From a virus, in the IMG/VR virus record IMGVR_UViG_3300042345_000884, positions 13,923 to 77,922 of that record: a DNA stretch of 64,000 nucleotides. One strand, given 5' to 3'. Positions 22,813 through 61,663 of the stretch are shown here, piece by piece. A program made the position numbers and the translations under genes. The notes below the pieces were generated by a model. It searched no databases, was not told where the DNA came from, and worked only from the letters and a program-made list of their open reading frames with translations. Positions within the stretch are counted from its first letter, which is position 1. The number at the start of each line of letters is the position of its first letter.

Positions 22813-23037
22813 TTAAGTTACTTGGATGTAAATGCTACCTTCTGGGTTTCCATCGTTATTGTTAGGAGGCGATGTTCCGTATGTAATGGTAGTTTGGTTT
22901 ATAGGATAAGCCGCGCTTCCCGTAGCATCAGCGACATAAATCATGATTCCAGTGCCTACTCTAACAAAATAAACAGCATTAGGCGTTAGGGTAGGGGGGA
23001 GGACTCCTAATACTTTTTCAGGGCGAAAAACTACCAT
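22813..23037 (-). CDS. Small tail-fibre-associated protein
   Basis: KVLGVLP..L.PNAVYFV and GTSPP....G..GSIYIQ; paralogous to the N-terminus of the adjacent gene. Confidence 0.55.
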   Translation of the reverse strand: MVVFRPEKVLGVLPPTLTPNAVYFVRVGTGIMIYVADATGSAAYPINQTTITYGTSPPNNNDGNPEGSIYIQVT

Positions 23038-23606
23038 GCAATTGTTCCCTCCCATTCAATTTTAGGCAAGCTATTATTATAGGTAAAAAGTCCATCAGTA
23101 TTTTCTCCTATTTTATCAAGCTGAGTTTTATTGGTGTGAGTGTGGCTATTGGACACCGCCGTATCAATAGCAGTAGGAGAGCTAGTAGGCCTTCCCTGAA
23201 TATTAGCCCATTGTGAAATCAAATCAAGCGATTCAGCTTCGTTTAATTTAATCCAAGAAGTCGTAGAAACTCTATAGAGGTAAGTAGCCGCGCCGCTTGT
23301 CACAGTGGAATCGCCAGTCGCGTCCAGAACCAATACCTGAGTGTTTTTGGTCAGCACTAAAGCATTTCTTGCTGCTATATCAGCTACAATCGGCATTTCA
23401 CCAGCTAATCCAGAAATTGAAGCATCGATTAATGCCTGAATATCTACATCTGTCAATAGTCGCTTTAGAGCAGTCCCAGAAGTATTGCTTACATATATTT
23501 CAATATAGTTCGGCTTGTCTTGAGGCGCAACAAAAAACACAGCGTTACCCTCGCAGGGTAGCGATGGGACTGCAGTTAATTTAGAGGGCTTAAAAGTTGT
23601 GCTCAT
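23031..23606 (-). CDS. Tail fibre-like structural protein
   Basis: VADIAARNAL...VLVLDATGD.TV.SGAATY, WANIQGRP, HTHTNK..LDKI. Confidence 0.65.
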   Translation of the reverse strand: MSTTFKPSKLTAVPSLPCEGNAVFFVAPQDKPNYIEIYVSNTSGTALKRLLTDVDIQALIDASISGLAGEMPIVADIAARNALVLTKNTQVLVLDATGDSTVTSGAATYLYRVSTTSWIKLNEAESLDLISQWANIQGRPTSSPTAIDTAVSNSHTHTNKTQLDKIGENTDGLFTYNNSLPKIEWEGTIAW

Positions 23607-23610
23607 ATTT

Positions 23611-23970
23611 TTACCAGTCTGTAATTATCCATTGCGTGTTTTCTAGGCTATTAAGCCAATCTTGCTCCGTGCCAGTGAATCCATTATCAATAGCCACTTG
23701 ATAAGCTGATTTACCTTCACTGCCACGAATATCAATTGCATTAGCAATTAAAGAAACTAATCCAGAAGCTCCGATATACCCTCCGATATCGGGGGGTAAA
23801 CCAGAACCTCCTACCCAGCCAGATACTTGCAATACCCGACGATTGCCATCAGAAATTAAAGAAAGAATAGGAGACCAGCCAGCATTCCCTAAAGTAGCTG
23901 AAAGAATTATCTTTTGAGAACTACCTGTTATTTCTGCTATCGCACCAGAGGATTGAACAATGACTGCCAT
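23611..23970 (-). CDS. Tail fibre component
   Basis: GKSAYQVAIDNGFTGTEQDWLNSL motif common in phage fibres. Confidence 0.65.
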   Translation of the reverse strand: MAVIVQSSGAIAEITGSSQKIILSATLGNAGWSPILSLISDGNRRVLQVSGWVGGSGLPPDIGGYIGASGLVSLIANAIDIRGSEGKSAYQVAIDNGFTGTEQDWLNSLENTQWIITDW

Positions 23971-29107: not shown

Positions 29108-29158
29108 TTTCAGTTATCAGTTATCAGTTATCAGTAAAAATAACTTAGGAGTAAAACA

Positions 29159-29656
29159 ATGACAATGATAGACATAGGACAATTCCCTAAAATTAACTCT
29201 GCACCGCAAGAGTTCGAGATAACCTGGTACAAAACAAAGTTAATTTATCCTTTTGAATACTCAGAAGGAATCCATTATTTTATCCAAAAAAAACAGGGAT
29301 GGATAGTTGATGAAATCGCTAAATGGGTAAAAGAAACTCATTTTAAGGAAGACTTTCCCTCAGTTATTGACTGGAAGTTAAAAGTAACCTATCAAAGCTT
29401 TAGAGATCGTATTCCGTGGGAGAATCCAAATCATTCATCTATATTAACGTGCAAAAATCGCCAAAATGCCACGTTTAAATTTGCATACATGACAGTATTT
29501 CCAAATACTAATATTGAGTTATATTACGACAGTGATCGTATAGATGAAGTTGACTTTTGTTTATTTGATATAGCCGACCCTTCTAAAACGGAATTAATGC
29601 TTGAAGAAGAATGGGTGTATTTACTTGGCGCCGCATCTTTCTTATTTGGTAGGTAA
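29159..29656 (+). CDS. Diverged paralog of the preceding DUF6876-like protein
   Basis: YPFEYSEGI..F....GWIVDEIA. Confidence 0.55.
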   Translation: MTMIDIGQFPKINSAPQEFEITWYKTKLIYPFEYSEGIHYFIQKKQGWIVDEIAKWVKETHFKEDFPSVIDWKLKVTYQSFRDRIPWENPNHSSILTCKNRQNATFKFAYMTVFPNTNIELYYDSDRIDEVDFCLFDIADPSKTELMLEEEWVYLLGAASFLFGR

Positions 29657-29675
29657 TCAAATGAGGAGTAAAACA

Positions 29676-41583: not shown

Positions 41584-42108
41584 ATGATTGAGATTGAAAT
41601 GGTAGAGATTCCTGATGCAACTTTTGCAATAGGTAAATATCCAGTGACTCAAAAACAATATGAAGCAGTAATGGGAACCAATCCCTCTTGGTTTAAAAAC
41701 AATCCCCAAAATCCAGTAGAAAATGTTAGCTATGATCAAGCTAAAGTTTTTTGCCAAAAACTAAGGAAGATGACTGGTAAAAATTATCGTTTACCAACGG
41801 AAGCAGAATGGGAATACGCCTGTCGGGCAGGGACTGAAACCCTATTTAGCTTTGGTGATGATTTATATAGGTTAGAAAGATTATGGTTGGTTGGATTGAA
41901 TTCTCAGAAGACAACTCATCCTGTGGGACGGAAATTACCTAACGCTTGGGGAATTTATGACATGAGTGGCAATGTCTGGGAAATGACTCAAGAAGCCAAG
42001 TTGCGGGGCGGTTCCAAGAACCGCGACCCTACTTATTGCTATTCTCGTTTTTATATCGTCAACACATTAGCAGAAAACATCGGTTTTCGAGTAGTTTGCG
42101 ACAAATAA
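41584..42108 (+). CDS. FGE-sulfatase (C-type-lectin fold) domain protein
   Basis: KYPVTQ, RLPTEAEWEYACRAG, PNAWGIYDMSGNVWE, RGGS, GFRVV. Confidence 0.92.
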   Translation: MIEIEMVEIPDATFAIGKYPVTQKQYEAVMGTNPSWFKNNPQNPVENVSYDQAKVFCQKLRKMTGKNYRLPTEAEWEYACRAGTETLFSFGDDLYRLERLWLVGLNSQKTTHPVGRKLPNAWGIYDMSGNVWEMTQEAKLRGGSKNRDPTYCYSRFYIVNTLAENIGFRVVCDK

Positions 42109-42163
42109 TCAAGATTCAGTTATCAGTTATCAGTTATCATCAACAAATAAACAGGAGTTCCAA

Positions 42164-42427
42164 ATGATTTTCTACAAAGCTTTCGATTTTTGCCTTCTTA
42201 CCCCTAGCGTACAAGAATTTGCTGAAAAACTAGAGAATATGCTAGTAAAATTAGACCATCATTTATTAATAAGTGAAGATGGACTTTACTGCAAAATATT
42301 TTATCTTGAACCATCACTTAATGTTTTTCCGTATGTTTTTGAAACTCAAAAAGTTTACGAGATGTTGAAAAATTTTAACAAACATAAAAGTTATTTATGG
42401 GCTTTTCTTCAAAATTGTAAAGCTTAA
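42164..42427 (+). CDS. Hypothetical protein
   Basis: AGGAG RBS. Confidence 0.55.
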   Translation: MIFYKAFDFCLLTPSVQEFAEKLENMLVKLDHHLLISEDGLYCKIFYLEPSLNVFPYVFETQKVYEMLKNFNKHKSYLWAFLQNCKA

Positions 42428-42479
42428 TAGTTTTAGCTATCAGTAGTCAGTAATCAGCGATAAATTAACAGGAGTAATT

Positions 42480-42710
42480 ATGTTTCACTTAAGCTTTGCA
42501 GAAAAAGATGAGAATGGCAATCCTAAAAATCAGACTTCTACTGTTGTGGCTATTATACGCGACAAGAATGGAAAGTGTAAAGAATATTCCCACAATATAA
42601 ATACAGAAGCTGATGTTACTGAAATTTTTGAATATTACAATCAAAGGGACGATTTATTGTATTTTGAAGCTATAGACGCTAAAACTGGTCAAACTATTAA
42701 ACTAAAGTAA
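42480..42710 (+). CDS. Hypothetical protein
   Basis: AGGAG RBS. Confidence 0.55.
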   Translation: MFHLSFAEKDENGNPKNQTSTVVAIIRDKNGKCKEYSHNINTEADVTEIFEYYNQRDDLLYFEAIDAKTGQTIKLK

Positions 42711-42729
42711 CAAGTTAACAGAGGTAATT

Positions 42730-43101
42730 ATGTTATCGTTTCAAGAGTTTCAAGAACAAGTTTTAAGTATGTTTGATGTAACCGAAAAAGATAAGTGTAA
42801 GTTTGCAAAAAATTGCATTTATTTTGGGGCAACTATTAGTTACGATAGCTATCAGGCGATAGTATTTGATGTAAAATATATCAAAAGTAACGGTCAGTGG
42901 CATATTCAAAAAATTTATACACAAGACTGTGAGGCTTTTTCGGATTCCTTGACTCAAGGAATCAAAACCATCGACAAACAAACCACAGACTCTATTAACG
43001 GTGAGTTACAAGTTTTCTTTAAAATTCAGAAAGGATGGAGAAAAGCTAAGTTCCAAGAGTTGTTTGAGTCTTTCAATGAATTAATAGAAGCAAAAAAATA
43101 A
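42730..43101 (+). CDS. Hypothetical protein
   Basis: GAGG RBS. Confidence 0.55.
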   Translation: MLSFQEFQEQVLSMFDVTEKDKCKFAKNCIYFGATISYDSYQAIVFDVKYIKSNGQWHIQKIYTQDCEAFSDSLTQGIKTIDKQTTDSINGELQVFFKIQKGWRKAKFQELFESFNELIEAKK

Positions 43102-58271: not shown

Positions 58272-58754
58272 ATGCCTAATTCTCCAAAAGTACAACAAAA
58301 TTTTAATGCTCCTGTTTATGGAGTAACTGGTTCTCCAAAAGTACAACAAAATTTTAATGCTCCTGTTTATGGAGTAACTGGTTCTCCAGAAGTGCAACAA
58401 AATTTTAATGCTCCTGTTTATGGAGTAACTGGAAAAATTGCCAAAGATCAAACAGAATTAAAATTTGATTATATTGTTAGATTTATTGCATGGGTTTTTC
58501 CTGATAAAAGCGATTCAGTTTATAAAAAATTGCTTATAACCGATATTTCTATTGGGATTACCTCTGAATTAGCCGTAAAGTCTGGTAAATTTGACGAGAC
58601 TAACTACTGTTGTGTTTACATCGCACCAGAAATTTTTGAAAAATTTATTATCACTAAAACAGGATCAAATTATACGGCTCAGACCGTTGACGTGCCGAGA
58701 CTATTAGAATATTGGGAGACTATAGGGTTTTCTCTTTATATTGATAAAAGTTAG
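58272..58754 (+). CDS. Hypothetical protein with three 17-aa repeats
   Basis: SPKVQQNFNAPVYGVTG x3 (51-bp units at 58281, 58332, 58383). Confidence 0.7.
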   Translation: MPNSPKVQQNFNAPVYGVTGSPKVQQNFNAPVYGVTGSPEVQQNFNAPVYGVTGKIAKDQTELKFDYIVRFIAWVFPDKSDSVYKKLLITDISIGITSELAVKSGKFDETNYCCVYIAPEIFEKFIITKTGSNYTAQTVDVPRLLEYWETIGFSLYIDKS

Positions 58755-58777: not shown

Positions 58778-59044
58778 GTGATTACTGCAAAACAATTAAA
58801 AGAGTTTTTGGCAACCGTTGAAGACGATGCACTTATTTTTATAGGGAAAAGCGGAGGGATGTCTTATGGTTGCCAAGATTTTATGGTTAAGAAGGAATTG
58901 TTTATAGAGAAAGAAGACCAGTTTCTTGATTCCCTAATTTGGGAGCATGGCTTTGACGATGAAGAAATTGAAAAGCTTGAAAAGCAAGCTATCGAGCGAC
59001 AAGCTATCTATTTGCAATACTACCCGGACTGGGGGGATGATTAA
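58778..59044 (+). CDS. Hypothetical protein
   Basis: 88-aa ORF, GTG start. Confidence 0.55.
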   Translation: MITAKQLKEFLATVEDDALIFIGKSGGMSYGCQDFMVKKELFIEKEDQFLDSLIWEHGFDDEEIEKLEKQAIERQAIYLQYYPDWGDD

Positions 59045-59071
59045 ATGTCAAATAAAAAACCTTTAGACTTC

Positions 59072-59108
59072 TTACTTGACATTTCTATAAAGCTTATGGT
59101 AGATTTAA
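59072..59108 (+). promoter_or_regulatory. Promoter of the Cas12-like gene
   Basis: TTGACA-N18-TAGATT with TG extension; near-identical to the 58194 copy. Confidence 0.75.
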
Positions 59109-59132
59109 ATAAGAATAAAGGAAGGTCGATCC

Positions 59133-60941
59133 ATGAAAGCCAAAAGTAAAGTCAACCGTAAAGTAGATGAGTGCCAAATTCAAGAAACACTTAGTTCTAA
59201 AGATAACTATCTAAGGTTTAGTATTGTCAAAAAGACTCCTAAGACAAAGGAAGAAAAACCTCCTATGGAAGTCTTAGAATTTAAAATACATCCTACCAAA
59301 GAACAAATCACAGAAATTAACCGTTCTTTTGTGGCGTGTAAGTTACTATGGAATCTTTCAATCGCACTCAAAGAAGAGTCAAAACAAAGATATTATCGTA
59401 AAACTTATAAATTTGATGAGTTTAGCCCTGAGATATGGGAGTTAAGTTATTCTGGACATTACGACGAAAAAGAGTTTAAAACCCTTAAAGATAAAGAGAA
59501 AGAACTTTTAATAAAAAACCCTTGCTGTAAAATTGCCTATTTCAAAAAGACAAGTAACGGAAAAGAATATACTCCCTTAGATGCTATTCCTATCCGCCGT
59601 TTTATGAATGTCGATGACATTGATAAGGATGCTGTTAACTATCTTAATAGACAAAAACTTGCTTTTTACTTTCGAGAAGATACAGCAAAATTTATCGGTG
59701 AAATTGAAACAGAGTTTAAAAAAGGCTTTTTTAGAAGTGTGGTTAAACCTGCTTATGATGCCGCTAAAAAAGGTATCCGTGGGATTCCCAGATTCAAAGG
59801 AAGCCGGGATAAAGTGGAGACTCTTGTTAATGGTCAACCTGAAACTATAAAAATTGAATCTAATGGAGTTATCGTTTCCTCAAAGATAGGATTACTGAAA
59901 GTGCGGGGGATTGACCGACTACAAGGAAAATCTCCCCGAATGGCTAAAATTACTCGTAAAGCGACGGGATATTACTTACAGTTAACCGTTGAAACTGACA
60001 ACGCAACCTATAAAGAATCCGATAAGTGTGTTGGTTTGGATATGGGTGCTGTGGCAATATTTACCGATGATTTAGGGAGACAATCAGAAGCTAAACGCTA
60101 CGCAAAAATTCAGAAAAAGCGACTTAACCGATTACAGCGTCAAGCTTCCAGACAAAAAGATGGCTCTAATAATCAGCGTAAAACCTACGCTAAACTTGCC
60201 CGTGTTCACGAGAAAATAGCCCGTCAAAGAAAAGGGAGAAATGCCCAATTAGCCCATAAAGTAACCAGTGAATATCAAACAGTTATTTTAGAAGATTTAA
60301 AACTAAAAAACATGACAGCCGCCGCAAAACCTAAAGAAAAGGAAGACGGCAATGGCTATAAACAAAATGGCAAAAAAAGAAAGTCTGGATTAAATAAAGT
60401 ATTGCTTGATAATGCTATCGGTCAACTTCGCACATTTATTGAAAATAAAGCTAACGAACGTGGCAGAAAAGTGATTCGTGTTAATCCTAAATATACCTCG
60501 CAAACTTGCTTAAATTGTGGTAATATTGATAAAGCTAACCGTGTTAGTCAGTCAAAGCTTAAATGCACTAGCTGTGGTTTTGAAGCCCACGCCGATCAGA
60601 ATGCCGCCGCAAATATTCTGATCCGTGGACTGCAAGATGAGTTTTTAAGAGCGATTGGCTCTTTAATTAAGTTTCCCGTCTCTTTGATTGGAAAATACCC
60701 TGGTTTAGCAGGGAAATTCACGCCTGATCTTGATTTGCATCAAGAGTTTATCGGGGACGCGCCGATAGAGAATGCCGAACACTCGATTAGTAAGCAGATG
60801 AAGCAGGAAGGGAATCGCATACCCACTCAGTCCGAGAATGACTCGCAATCCCTTATTTTTCAAACCGCCCCACCTCAGCCGTGCGAGGATAGCCACGGCA
60901 TAAATAACCCGAAAGCCTTACCCAATAAGGCATCTAAGTGA
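59133..60941 (+). CDS. Compact type V CRISPR effector (TnpB-derived, Cas12f/C2c8 V-U2-like)
   Basis: LEFKIHPT N-motif (alternative start 59265), RuvC-I GLDMG, RuvC-II LEDL, Zn finger CLNC/CTSC, RuvC-III ADQNAA; array 170 bp downstream; no tnpA. Confidence 0.88.
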   Translation: MKAKSKVNRKVDECQIQETLSSKDNYLRFSIVKKTPKTKEEKPPMEVLEFKIHPTKEQITEINRSFVACKLLWNLSIALKEESKQRYYRKTYKFDEFSPEIWELSYSGHYDEKEFKTLKDKEKELLIKNPCCKIAYFKKTSNGKEYTPLDAIPIRRFMNVDDIDKDAVNYLNRQKLAFYFREDTAKFIGEIETEFKKGFFRSVVKPAYDAAKKGIRGIPRFKGSRDKVETLVNGQPETIKIESNGVIVSSKIGLLKVRGIDRLQGKSPRMAKITRKATGYYLQLTVETDNATYKESDKCVGLDMGAVAIFTDDLGRQSEAKRYAKIQKKRLNRLQRQASRQKDGSNNQRKTYAKLARVHEKIARQRKGRNAQLAHKVTSEYQTVILEDLKLKNMTAAAKPKEKEDGNGYKQNGKKRKSGLNKVLLDNAIGQLRTFIENKANERGRKVIRVNPKYTSQTCLNCGNIDKANRVSQSKLKCTSCGFEAHADQNAAANILIRGLQDEFLRAIGSLIKFPVSLIGKYPGLAGKFTPDLDLHQEFIGDAPIENAEHSISKQMKQEGNRIPTQSENDSQSLIFQTAPPQPCEDSHGINNPKALPNKASK

Positions 60942-61029
60942 AGTTCCAAAAAATCACGGGGCGCAATCTCCGAAAACCCTGACCAGTTTACGATCTGGGA
61001 TTCACCAGCCTGATTTTTTGAACCAAGCA

Positions 61030-61041
61030 GAACCTTGAAAA
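61030..61041 (+). promoter_or_regulatory. boxA-like antitermination motif in the CRISPR leader
   Basis: GAACCTTGAAAA, matching the cyanobacterial rrn spacer boxA as I recall it. Confidence 0.6.
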
Positions 61042-61110
61042 CTGAATTTTAACGAATGGGGCGCAATCCTTACTCAAAACCCTTTTATATCAAGGGTTTT
61101 GGGAAGATAA

Positions 61111-61363
61111 GAAACAATTAGGCTTAAGCTTTATTAGGGATTGAAACAACCTTACACCCTGACACGGCTTTAATGCTTTACCGAAACAATTAGGCTTAAG
61201 CTTTATTAGGGATTGAAACAACAATGACCCTCGAAATGTCTCAACCCCAACTCAAAACAATTAGGCTTAAGCTTTATTAGGGATTGAAACCAAGTTAGTA
61301 TCTGTTTTTAATTGCTTAGGAATAAAGAAACAATTAGGCTTAAGCTTTATTGAGGATTGAAAC
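61111..61363 (+). CRISPR. CRISPR mini-array: four 37-bp repeats, three spacers (35, 34, 36 bp)
   Basis: GAAACAATTAGGCTTAAGCTTTATTAGGGATTGAAAC at 61111, 61183, 61254 (first base A) and 61327 (last, degenerate). Confidence 0.97.
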
Positions 61364-61375
61364 TGACACTAAACA

Positions 61376-61663
61376 ATGAGTCAAACACAACTAGATAAAA
61401 AGATCGATCAATTTCTAAGAAAGAAACTAACCAAAGCAAAACTAAAAGAAATGGGAATAAAACCACGCCCTTTAATTTTGACAATACGCAATTTTGTCAA
61501 GAGGTATTTACTTATCATTTTAGATAGTATTTTTATTAATGTTCCTTGTGGATGGGATAACTTTTTTGAAAGTTTTTATTGCTGGCAGAAGCTAATACTT
61601 AAAAGCAATAAATCTCTGTTAGTAATTTATTTCTGGGAAACTATTAATAACTATAAAGAATAA
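61376..61663 (+). CDS. Hypothetical protein (paralog of 62839-63162)
   Basis: VPCGWDNFFESFYCWQKL. Confidence 0.6.
   Translation: MSQTQLDKKIDQFLRKKLTKAKLKEMGIKPRPLILTIRNFVKRYLLIILDSIFINVPCGWDNFFESFYCWQKLILKSNKSLLVIYFWETINNYKE

Follow-up and report, generated by a model that had tools for sequence, protein, structure and literature searches.

What does a compact nuclease gene next to a three-spacer array do on a phage that has no genes for acquiring spacers? The question is raised by positions 59072-61363 of a 64,000-nt stretch of viral DNA, here called the window, which comprises bases 13923-77922 of the 77.9-kb IMG/VR virus record IMGVR_UViG_3300042345_000884 (judged 86% complete). With high confidence, the locus is a type V-U2 CRISPR module, with C2c8 as its effector. 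That type V loci borne by phages might already be catalogued had been suspected in the original prediction, and a phage-borne V-U2 locus was indeed known from cyanophage vB_AphaS-CL131 (CL131), published with a putative V-U2 system (PMC6293099). What is new here is the turnover of the array, a repeat and leader resembling those of type I-D, plasmid targets, an anti-repeat, the replacement of host cas4-cas1-cas2, and a truncated allele.

The preferred reading, given a probability of roughly 0.6, is a three-part V-U2 module on a siphovirus-like phage of Microcystis, made up of C2c8, an RNA resembling a trans-activating CRISPR RNA (tracrRNA) and an I-D-like mini-array. C2c8, a TnpB-derived RuvC nuclease, would be expressed from its own promoter. 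The tracrRNA-like RNA would come from a stretch that covers the gene's 3′ end together with the leader, and its anti-repeat would pair with the array repeat. During infection, the I-D Cas1-Cas2-Cas4 of the host would insert spacers at the gene-proximal end, drawn from protospacers beside 5′-GT(C/T), and host Cas6 may cut the precursor CRISPR RNA (pre-crRNA). Armed with crRNA and tracrRNA, C2c8 would then attack DNA present in the same cell; in this phage lineage most of the targets are small Microcystis plasmids of the CyRepA type, with rival phages besides. A clamp-like motif at the C-terminus of full-length relatives may keep the nuclease attached to DNA that is being replicated. The window copy is a derived allele that has lost this tail, pairs more weakly between repeat and anti-repeat, and keeps only three spacers, the oldest of them directed against Ma-LMM01-like myoviruses.

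The gene, c2c8, occupies 59133..60941 on the plus strand and encodes 602 aa. Against NCBIfam NF038192 (C2c8, V-U2) the protein scored 458.5 bits, above the cut-off of 350, with residues 47-469 aligned to model positions 2-457; a six-frame genome search with the same model gave 458.4 bits. The earlier guess of C2c8 therefore passed its profile test. Pfam assigned the domains HTH_OrfB_IS605, OrfB_IS605 and Cas12f1-like_TNB. The original prediction had described a 602-aa TnpB-like protein with a RuvC triad and a zinc finger; the open reading frame (ORF) was confirmed, and all seven residues (D303, E387 and D488 of RuvC; C459, C462, C478 and C481 of the zinc finger) were invariant in an alignment of 35 sequences comprising family members and TnpB relatives. 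An AlphaFold model had a core with predicted local distance difference test (pLDDT) values of 80-94 and was disordered at residues 1-40, 96-154 and 514-602. Its best PDB matches by Foldseek were Cas12p, the ISFba1 and ISDra2 TnpBs, several Cas12f proteins and LaTranC (E 1e-15 to 1e-22). Over the core (residues 45-500), the ratio of nonsynonymous to synonymous polymorphism (pN/pS) was 0.10-0.13, and 0.13 between the window and a relative, reflecting strong purifying selection.

Given the Pfam OrfB_IS605 domains, and the label 'IS605 OrfB family transposase' under which databases hold the relatives, an ordinary IS200/IS605 TnpB transposon beside a captured host array might be proposed. This proposal can be practically dismissed. 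The IS200_TnpB model gave 138 bits against a cut-off of 425, and the IS607 TnpB score also lay under the model cut-off. No tnpA and no transposon ends accompany the gene, and nesting among IS605 TnpBs was not seen. Cas1, Cas2, Cas4, Cas6 and Y1 TnpA were all absent across the whole 77.9-kb record, so that the lack of tnpA, cas1, cas2, cas4 and cas6 claimed earlier for the window extends to the full record. The gene is present as one copy per genome in a fixed position by arrays, with synteny conserved across the phage lineage, and it stands apart from the TnpBs of the host: each c2c8-bearing host genome has a single C2c8 (414-492 bits) and 15-20 ordinary TnpBs that reach at most 116 bits. An identity as Cas12f was likewise rejected, the Cas12f2 model NF049972 giving 89.4 bits against a cut-off of 450, with a similar fold nonetheless.

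Upstream of the gene, a consensus scan placed its regional best, a promoter-like site TTGACA-18-TAGATT with a TG-extended −10 (59076..59105, plus strand; 10/12 matches). The region from 59054 on, this site included, is ~89-91% conserved in phage relatives, which is consistent with the claim that the gene has its own promoter. The large N-terminal insertion of the original prediction resolved into two things. One is a family-typical insert at about residues 96-154, poorly modelled; the other, residues 1-44, is a phage-specific basic extension (codons 1-44, 59133..59264, plus strand), modelled as disordered. Host copies start at M45, and host-phage homology starts at 59265. In contig L007 the extension must be translated, because there is no Met at position 45; relatives carry in-frame indels within it.

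The array lies on the plus strand and consists of four 37-nt repeats at 61111-61147, 61183-61219, 61254-61290 and 61327-61363, the last of them degenerate, which enclose spacers s1 (61148-61182, 35 nt), s2 (61220-61253, 34 nt) and s3 (61291-61326, 36 nt). The first repeat starts 169 nt past the stop codon, in agreement with the four-repeat array placed about 170 bp downstream in the first reading. A co-oriented array of 3-25 spacers, 172-184 nt past the end of the tblastn match, was present in 15/15 close relatives, these being IMG/VR contigs whose proteins are 90-100% identical to the window C2c8. Downstream arrays with unrelated repeats were also found in viral contigs L017 and L018, with a protein 45% identical, and in CL131, and the homologues are in this sense array-linked in three clades. 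Spacer sets mostly differ among the 15 relatives. Contigs L006, L010 and L011 have trailer-end spacers in common and differ at their gene-proximal ends. Terminal repeats are degenerate; the pattern indicates polarised gain of spacers at the leader (gene-proximal) end. An Rfam search gave no match above threshold on the leader or the 3′ end of the ORF, and CRISPR-DR9 reached 19.9 against 45 on the last repeat. In L007 and L008 the array is directly followed by a second gene of the C2c8 family (L008:8817-10581; 561 aa; 370 bits; 32% identity to the first), whose promoter is a duplicate of that of c2c8.

Between gene and array, alignment A2 delimited a leader (61014..61110, plus strand) that is nearly invariant between phage and host copies. 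It contains the motifs GAACCTTGAAAA (61030-61041) and GGGGCGCAATCC (61058-61069), both of which recur in the ordinary Microcystis I-D leader, and a hairpin CCCTT..AAGGG (61080-61096). Read directly from the sequence, CAATCCTTA (61064-61072) could pair with repeat nt 25-33. The ordinary I-D leader and the phage leader (~95 nt) have two motifs in common, GGGGCGCA..CCTTA.CCCG and GAACCTTGAAAA. The second repeat type of the host arrays is the one reported as I-D in M. aeruginosa FACHB-524 (PMC11855584, Table 2). With this repeat the window repeat agrees at 29/37 positions and those of the relatives at 32/37 (differences 5-8/37), and the phage repeat keeps the I-D 3′ hairpin and the ATTGAAAC end. 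Spacer lengths are alike in phage and host I-D arrays.

For the analysis of targets, 87 unique phage-borne and 136 host spacers were collected. A 5′ GT flank was found at 12/23 protospacers of phage spacers (GTC in 10) and at 9/12 of host spacers, the chance expectation being ~1 in 16. With an I-D-like repeat of identical 3′ end, an I-D-like leader and the GT flank, on a phage without a cas operon, the array appears to behave like an I-D array for adaptation without being a member of that type. Because repeat and leader are I-D variants and the protospacers carry the same 5′-GT flank, the spacers are probably supplied in trans by the host I-D Cas1-Cas2-Cas4. Microcystis is the host, because 12/136 Microcystis spacers match the phage lineage, several perfectly.

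The most frequent target was a family of related 7-9 kb replicons: 21 of the 87 phage-borne spacers, drawn from six phage arrays, match it on both strands (at least 85% identity along the entire spacer). One of the matched replicons is p1, a plasmid of M. aeruginosa NIES-2549 (L085, 6987 bp), and another encodes a CyRepA1-type replication protein. The plasmid family (L084, which is G016:C2 with 7606 bp, and L085-L088) encodes a Rep primase/helicase, a tyrosine recombinase and a Mu-like helix-turn-helix DNA-binding protein. Pfam recognised no defence gene among the plasmid ORFs, which gives no support to the idea that the phage targets plasmid-borne defence. None of the 136 host spacers matches these plasmids, and no spacer is common to host and phage arrays. 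Window spacer s3 matches three Ma-LMM01-like viral contigs at 35/36 positions and Ma-LMM01 itself at 30/36; for s1 and s2, searches of the phage and plasmid collections and of 17 Microcystis genomes, and exact scans of IMG/VR, gave no target. Spacer s2 of L012 matches the second C2c8 paralogue of the sister phages L007 and L008 at 35/36, with a GTC flank. An RNA-guided weapon against co-infecting elements or host genes had been foreseen; plasmids, Ma-LMM01-like phages and a sister phage fit the first half, and no host-gene targets were found for the second. None of the 87 phage-borne spacers matches the phage backbone. In an infected cell, DNA of the phage is probably more plentiful than any other, so that the lack of backbone-matching spacers argues that self-targeting is selected against, which in turn implies that interference works.

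Such spacers also bear on a view in which the repeats are RNA decoys (solitary-repeat RNA anti-CRISPRs) by which Cas6 or I-D subunits of the host would be sequestered, with no part for the spacers to play. The mimicry of the host I-D repeat would suit a decoy, as would the solitary repeat that Ma-LMM01-type myoviruses carry between homologous flanking genes. A pure decoy requires neither leader-end spacer turnover, nor GT-flanked protospacers on plasmids and phages, nor self-avoidance, and the repeat here is not isolated: there are four repeats with three spacers in the window and up to 25 spacers in relatives. Decoys are therefore held to be very improbable as the explanation of this locus. 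The myoviruses concerned, MaMV-CH01, DL01, DL02 and DH01, have one copy of the repeat, without c2c8 and without spacers, flanked by homologues of the window genes 58778-59044 and 61376-61663 (L065:2440-2620; MaMV-CH01, PP681321.1, ~152650-152720; compare window 58980-59060 and 61327-61440). It represents either a collapsed locus or a solitary-repeat decoy.

How C2c8 would find its guide is suggested by a candidate anti-repeat at 60920..60946 (plus strand), complementary to repeat nt 5-30 and ~165 nt upstream of the array. In the clade of the window, ACCCAAUAAGGC..UAAGC..AGUUC pairs with repeat nt 2-30, and the observed duplex energy was reached by 4/1000 shuffles for L004 and 1/1000 for L006. 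L017 and L018 contain a perfect 22-bp complement of their own repeat on the same strand, ~145 nt upstream of the array (~−41 kcal/mol; 0/1000 shuffles), and CL131 has a 16/18 same-strand complement at L063:4480-4497 (MG209611.1), 150 nt upstream of its array. Three clades whose repeats are unrelated thus have a same-strand anti-repeat at ~145-165 nt upstream of their arrays. The host I-D repeat showed no pairing with the candidate site. A duplex search of the whole region (600 nt) did not single out the anti-repeat of the window clade, which was located by the positional prior alone.

The surrounding region, 60727..61075 (strand not assigned), lies under very deep metatranscriptome contigs and may correspond to an abundant non-coding RNA. 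Summed depth in freshwater metatranscriptome runs X2/X4 was 2555/25556 at 60727-60813 and 363/714 at 60988-61074, compared with ~12-160 over the gene body, in a measure (contig depth) that is a poor gauge of RNA, to which host copies may contribute and from which strand and ends are not determinable. Study P1 showed the same trend more weakly, and one metatranscriptome contig identical to the window allele spans 60691-61018. Synonymous divergence over codons 501-627 is 2.5-3 times lower than in the core. Anti-repeat, RNA depth and low synonymous divergence converge on a candidate transcript resembling an omegaRNA or tracrRNA over the 3′ end of the gene; RNA-guided cleavage by C2c8 is inferred.

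The array might instead serve a host effector of type I-D (or III-B), host immunity being redirected against plasmids and rival phages. Cas6 would then cut the pre-crRNA, crRNAs with an 8-nt ATTGAAAC tag would enter Cascade-like complexes of the host, and C2c8 would travel along as a passenger whose own role lies elsewhere, for instance in regulation or as a homing nuclease. In favour of this, the phage repeat is only 5-8/37 off the I-D repeat and keeps the 3′ hairpin and handle; phage and host spacers have the same GT flank; cas6 lies directly upstream of c2c8 in host genomes; phages with an array only are known, for example cyanophage N-1 (PMC4916379); and the anti-repeat of the window is weak. 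Against these points, gene and array occur together in 15/15 relatives, with the gene under strong purifying selection, and the clades with unrelated repeats (L017/L018, CL131) have, beside c2c8, anti-repeats that match those repeats, an arrangement that makes no sense unless the array serves C2c8. Pairing with the anti-repeat is seen for the phage-type repeat and not for the I-D repeat, and phage repeats keep a 5′ half of their own instead of being homogenised with the host repeat. A host effector as the user of the array is accordingly considered unlikely, and use by C2c8 is preferred.

The C-terminal extension of about 100 aa described in the original prediction is present as a disordered tail; overlooked at that stage was its truncation by a nonsense mutation. 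At 60939..60941 (plus strand) the window has TGA, where CGA (Arg) is found in 10/10 other loci, as seen in DNA alignment A2, the translation and protein alignment A1. The TGA is common to the window and its identical twin, contig L016, and the 602-aa protein forms a cluster of 5 sequences found on 6 contigs. In relatives the protein is 25 residues longer and ends in ..PENPDQLTIWDLLA. In their reading frame, the former coding tail of the window is 60942..61013 (plus strand; 23 codons and the old stop), so that ~72/169 bases between stop and first repeat are former coding sequence. It includes a decayed motif, QFTIWD at 60984-61001 (QLTIWD in relatives), and beyond the new stop four missense changes specific to the lineage have accumulated. 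The closing motif QL-x-[LIF]-[WF] is kept even in family members at 35% identity, with QL invariant and one clade ending in QLTLF. Its loss from the window allele, through a stop 25 codons early, is a defect of the allele and not a mismatch to the family.

This C-terminal motif resembles a beta-clamp-binding motif, and a putative C-terminal beta-binding motif was reported in cyanobacterial IS200/IS605 OrfB by Gomez et al. 2014 (PMC3971601). When the host C2c8 tail was modelled in complex with the dimer of Microcystis DnaN, the score was 0.62, compared with 0.40 for the best of three controls, a score that shows likeness and not binding because clamp-peptide complexes have already been solved; this mark was reached by 58/80 solved complexes and 2/110 mismatched pairs. 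At least 39% of contacts agreed between runs, with a partner pLDDT of at least 43. C2c8 residues 577-587 were docked onto DnaN 179-184, 254-259 and 374-381.

Is the window copy then a decaying remnant without interference? The CGA>TGA change removes a family-wide motif and is followed by the four further missense changes, the repeat:anti-repeat pairing is the weakest of the clade, the array is the shortest and has two degenerate repeats, and s1 and s2 have no target found. In other respects the 602-aa frame is whole: every catalytic residue is present, and the core pN/pS is 0.13 against a relative; the allele is present on at least 6 contigs, and identical contigs from RNA libraries cover 60691-61018. 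Moreover, a disordered tail may be dispensable for cleavage. A remnant is therefore possible but on the doubtful side. The stop itself lies inside the candidate anti-repeat, where the C>U change leaves a G-U pair, and the window repeats have diverged. From these features the copy may be weakened or partly disabled with its core still intact; for full activity of the truncated copy the odds are about even.

Several further points weigh against the preferred mechanism. The literature holds no experiment in which any C2c8 binds or cleaves DNA, and V-U2 is uncharacterised. The GT flank and the Cas6-type 3′ handle would equally fit crRNAs that serve the host I-D complex. Pairing of the window's own anti-repeat was not significant (54/1000 shuffles), and the fold of a 429-nt RNA spanning the 3′ end of the ORF and the leader was no more stable than shuffles (z −1.28). 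The s3 protospacer (L097) has AAA, not GT, on its 5′ side and GTT on the opposite side, which may mean that s3, the oldest spacer, went in the other way round. To these are added the window allele itself, lacking the conserved tail and having the shortest array of the clade (3 spacers), and the limits given above for contig depth and for the clamp model.

Copies of c2c8 also occur in three Microcystis assemblies, at ~89% DNA identity to the phage from codon M45 through the leader. There, one or two repeats of phage type come after the gene (one of them, in L029, a hybrid), and 15-68 I-D repeats after those. Where c2c8 is absent, Microcystis genomes show the order cas6-cas4-cas1-cas2-leader-array; where it is present, they have cas6, the first ~47 nt of cas4, ~130 nt of unrelated sequence, c2c8 from M45 and the leader. 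The gene thus occupies precisely the place that normally belongs to cas4-cas1-cas2 and the I-D leader (L029:5790-6010, L028:2271-2490, L099:3120-5270). No Cas1 was found in the three c2c8-bearing assemblies. Among 11 genomes with I-D arrays, cas1 stood beside the array in 8/11 and c2c8 in its place in 3/11 (Fisher ~0.006). In the protein tree the host clade nests among phage copies, with support of only 81/76 at the key forks, and the direction of transfer is not settled. In Microcystis sp. LSC13-02 (L030:1076-2512), c2c8 is split by an IS200/IS605 TnpB element with a 337-aa ORF (1461-2474).

A tentative and distinctly unlikely extension of these data is that c2c8, leader and repeat form a cassette, spread by phages, that converts host I-D loci by recombination through the common repeats. 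If so, replacement of cas4-cas1-cas2 and the native leader would knock out spacer acquisition by the host and hand its array to a clamp-tethered class 2 nuclease. Carrier phages would use the intact I-D adaptation modules of other hosts against small plasmids, and the targeted plasmids may be satellites that interfere with phages.

Compared with known systems, the locus is closest to CL131, in which a putative V-U2 system with a TnpB-like ORF061 and 10 spacers was described (PMC6293099). Both are C2c8 genes on cyanobacterial siphophages (CL131: 451 bits against NF038192, 37% identical) with a co-oriented array a few hundred nt downstream and no other cas genes. The CL131 repeat is unrelated and, according to its authors, unlike host repeats (PMC6293099). 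Its 10 spacers gave one weak match, whereas here a lineage with turnover, an I-D-like repeat and leader, and identified plasmid and phage targets is available. No tracrRNA was found by the CL131 authors (PMC6293099); the 16/18 anti-repeat is nevertheless present in CL131. Chromosomal C2c8/V-U2 loci of cyanobacteria were described by Shmakov et al. 2017 (as cited in PMC6293099). The chromosomal Microcystis C2c8 belongs to the same family, to which the phage copy adds its own predicted promoter and the 44-residue N-terminal extension, and the chromosomal gene has cas6 on one side and a long I-D array on the other, in the normal place of cas4-cas1-cas2.

With the TnpBs of ISDra2 and ISFba1 and with Cas12f, Cas12p and TranC, the window protein has in common the RuvC and zinc-finger fold and a guide 3′ of the repeat, and the apparent encoding of the guide scaffold over the 3′ end of c2c8 recalls omegaRNA. 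Unlike TnpB and Cas12f, C2c8 scores below the cut-offs of those families and has no transposase or transposon ends, and it is accompanied by an array with turnover instead of a fixed guide, with repeats borrowed from a class 1 system. Cyanophage N-1 (PMC4916379) likewise has a short array with host-like repeats, no adaptation genes and a probable use against competitors; here, by contrast, the array is accompanied by an effector gene and a candidate tracrRNA. In the Microcystis siphophage Mic1, a 'TnpB-like' gene, gp49, is immediate-early, and its disruption coincided with a drop in burst size from ~450 to ~2 (PMC11237433).

The plasmid targets invite a further comparison, with a system that PMC6293099 cites as its ref. 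75. Vibrio phage ICP1 is reported to be a lytic phage that turns its own CRISPR system (type I-F) on a small host-resident element, PLE, and in this it resembles the present case; it reportedly differs in having a complete system with its own adaptation genes. Unlike PLE, the Microcystis plasmids targeted here have no recognised anti-phage gene.

The locus is thus ordinary in its existence and informative in its detail. Of the original 'V-U' subtypes, V-U2 alone still lacks a known guide RNA, protospacer-adjacent motif (PAM) or activity, and a 2024 review gave neither a size nor a PAM for it. The lineage makes V-U2 directly testable, as it supplies a candidate tracrRNA position in three clades, a candidate PAM 5′-GTC, real targets, and full-length and truncated alleles. 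A class 2 effector that travels with a class 1-type leader and array implies adaptation by the host in trans, which would be one answer to how mini-systems without adaptation genes keep their arrays current. The presence of c2c8 in place of cas4-cas1-cas2 in three Microcystis genomes links phage CRISPR modules to the loss of adaptation in a bloom-forming cyanobacterium.

The record is that of a tailed phage, which encodes the large terminase, proteins for tail assembly and the minor tail, a tape measure protein of 3119 aa, ribonucleotide reductase and thymidylate synthase. Megablast searches of the phage collection, with the locus and with 16 kb of the phage as queries, gave no close relative, only short Ma-LMM01/MaMV segments, and both published repeated promoter motifs of Mic1 were absent here. 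The ORF at 58272-58754, for which Pfam gave no match, contains three 51-nt tandem copies in exact register (58280-58432), so that a 17-residue peptide is encoded three times. Segments of 0.3-0.8 kb at window positions 22895-23710, 29112-29660 and 41622-42754 are common with Ma-LMM01-like contigs (L096, L098) at 79-92% identity. The occurrence of such segments in both Ma-LMM01-like contigs and an unrelated siphovirus-like phage indicates an exchange of modules between Microcystis phage families.

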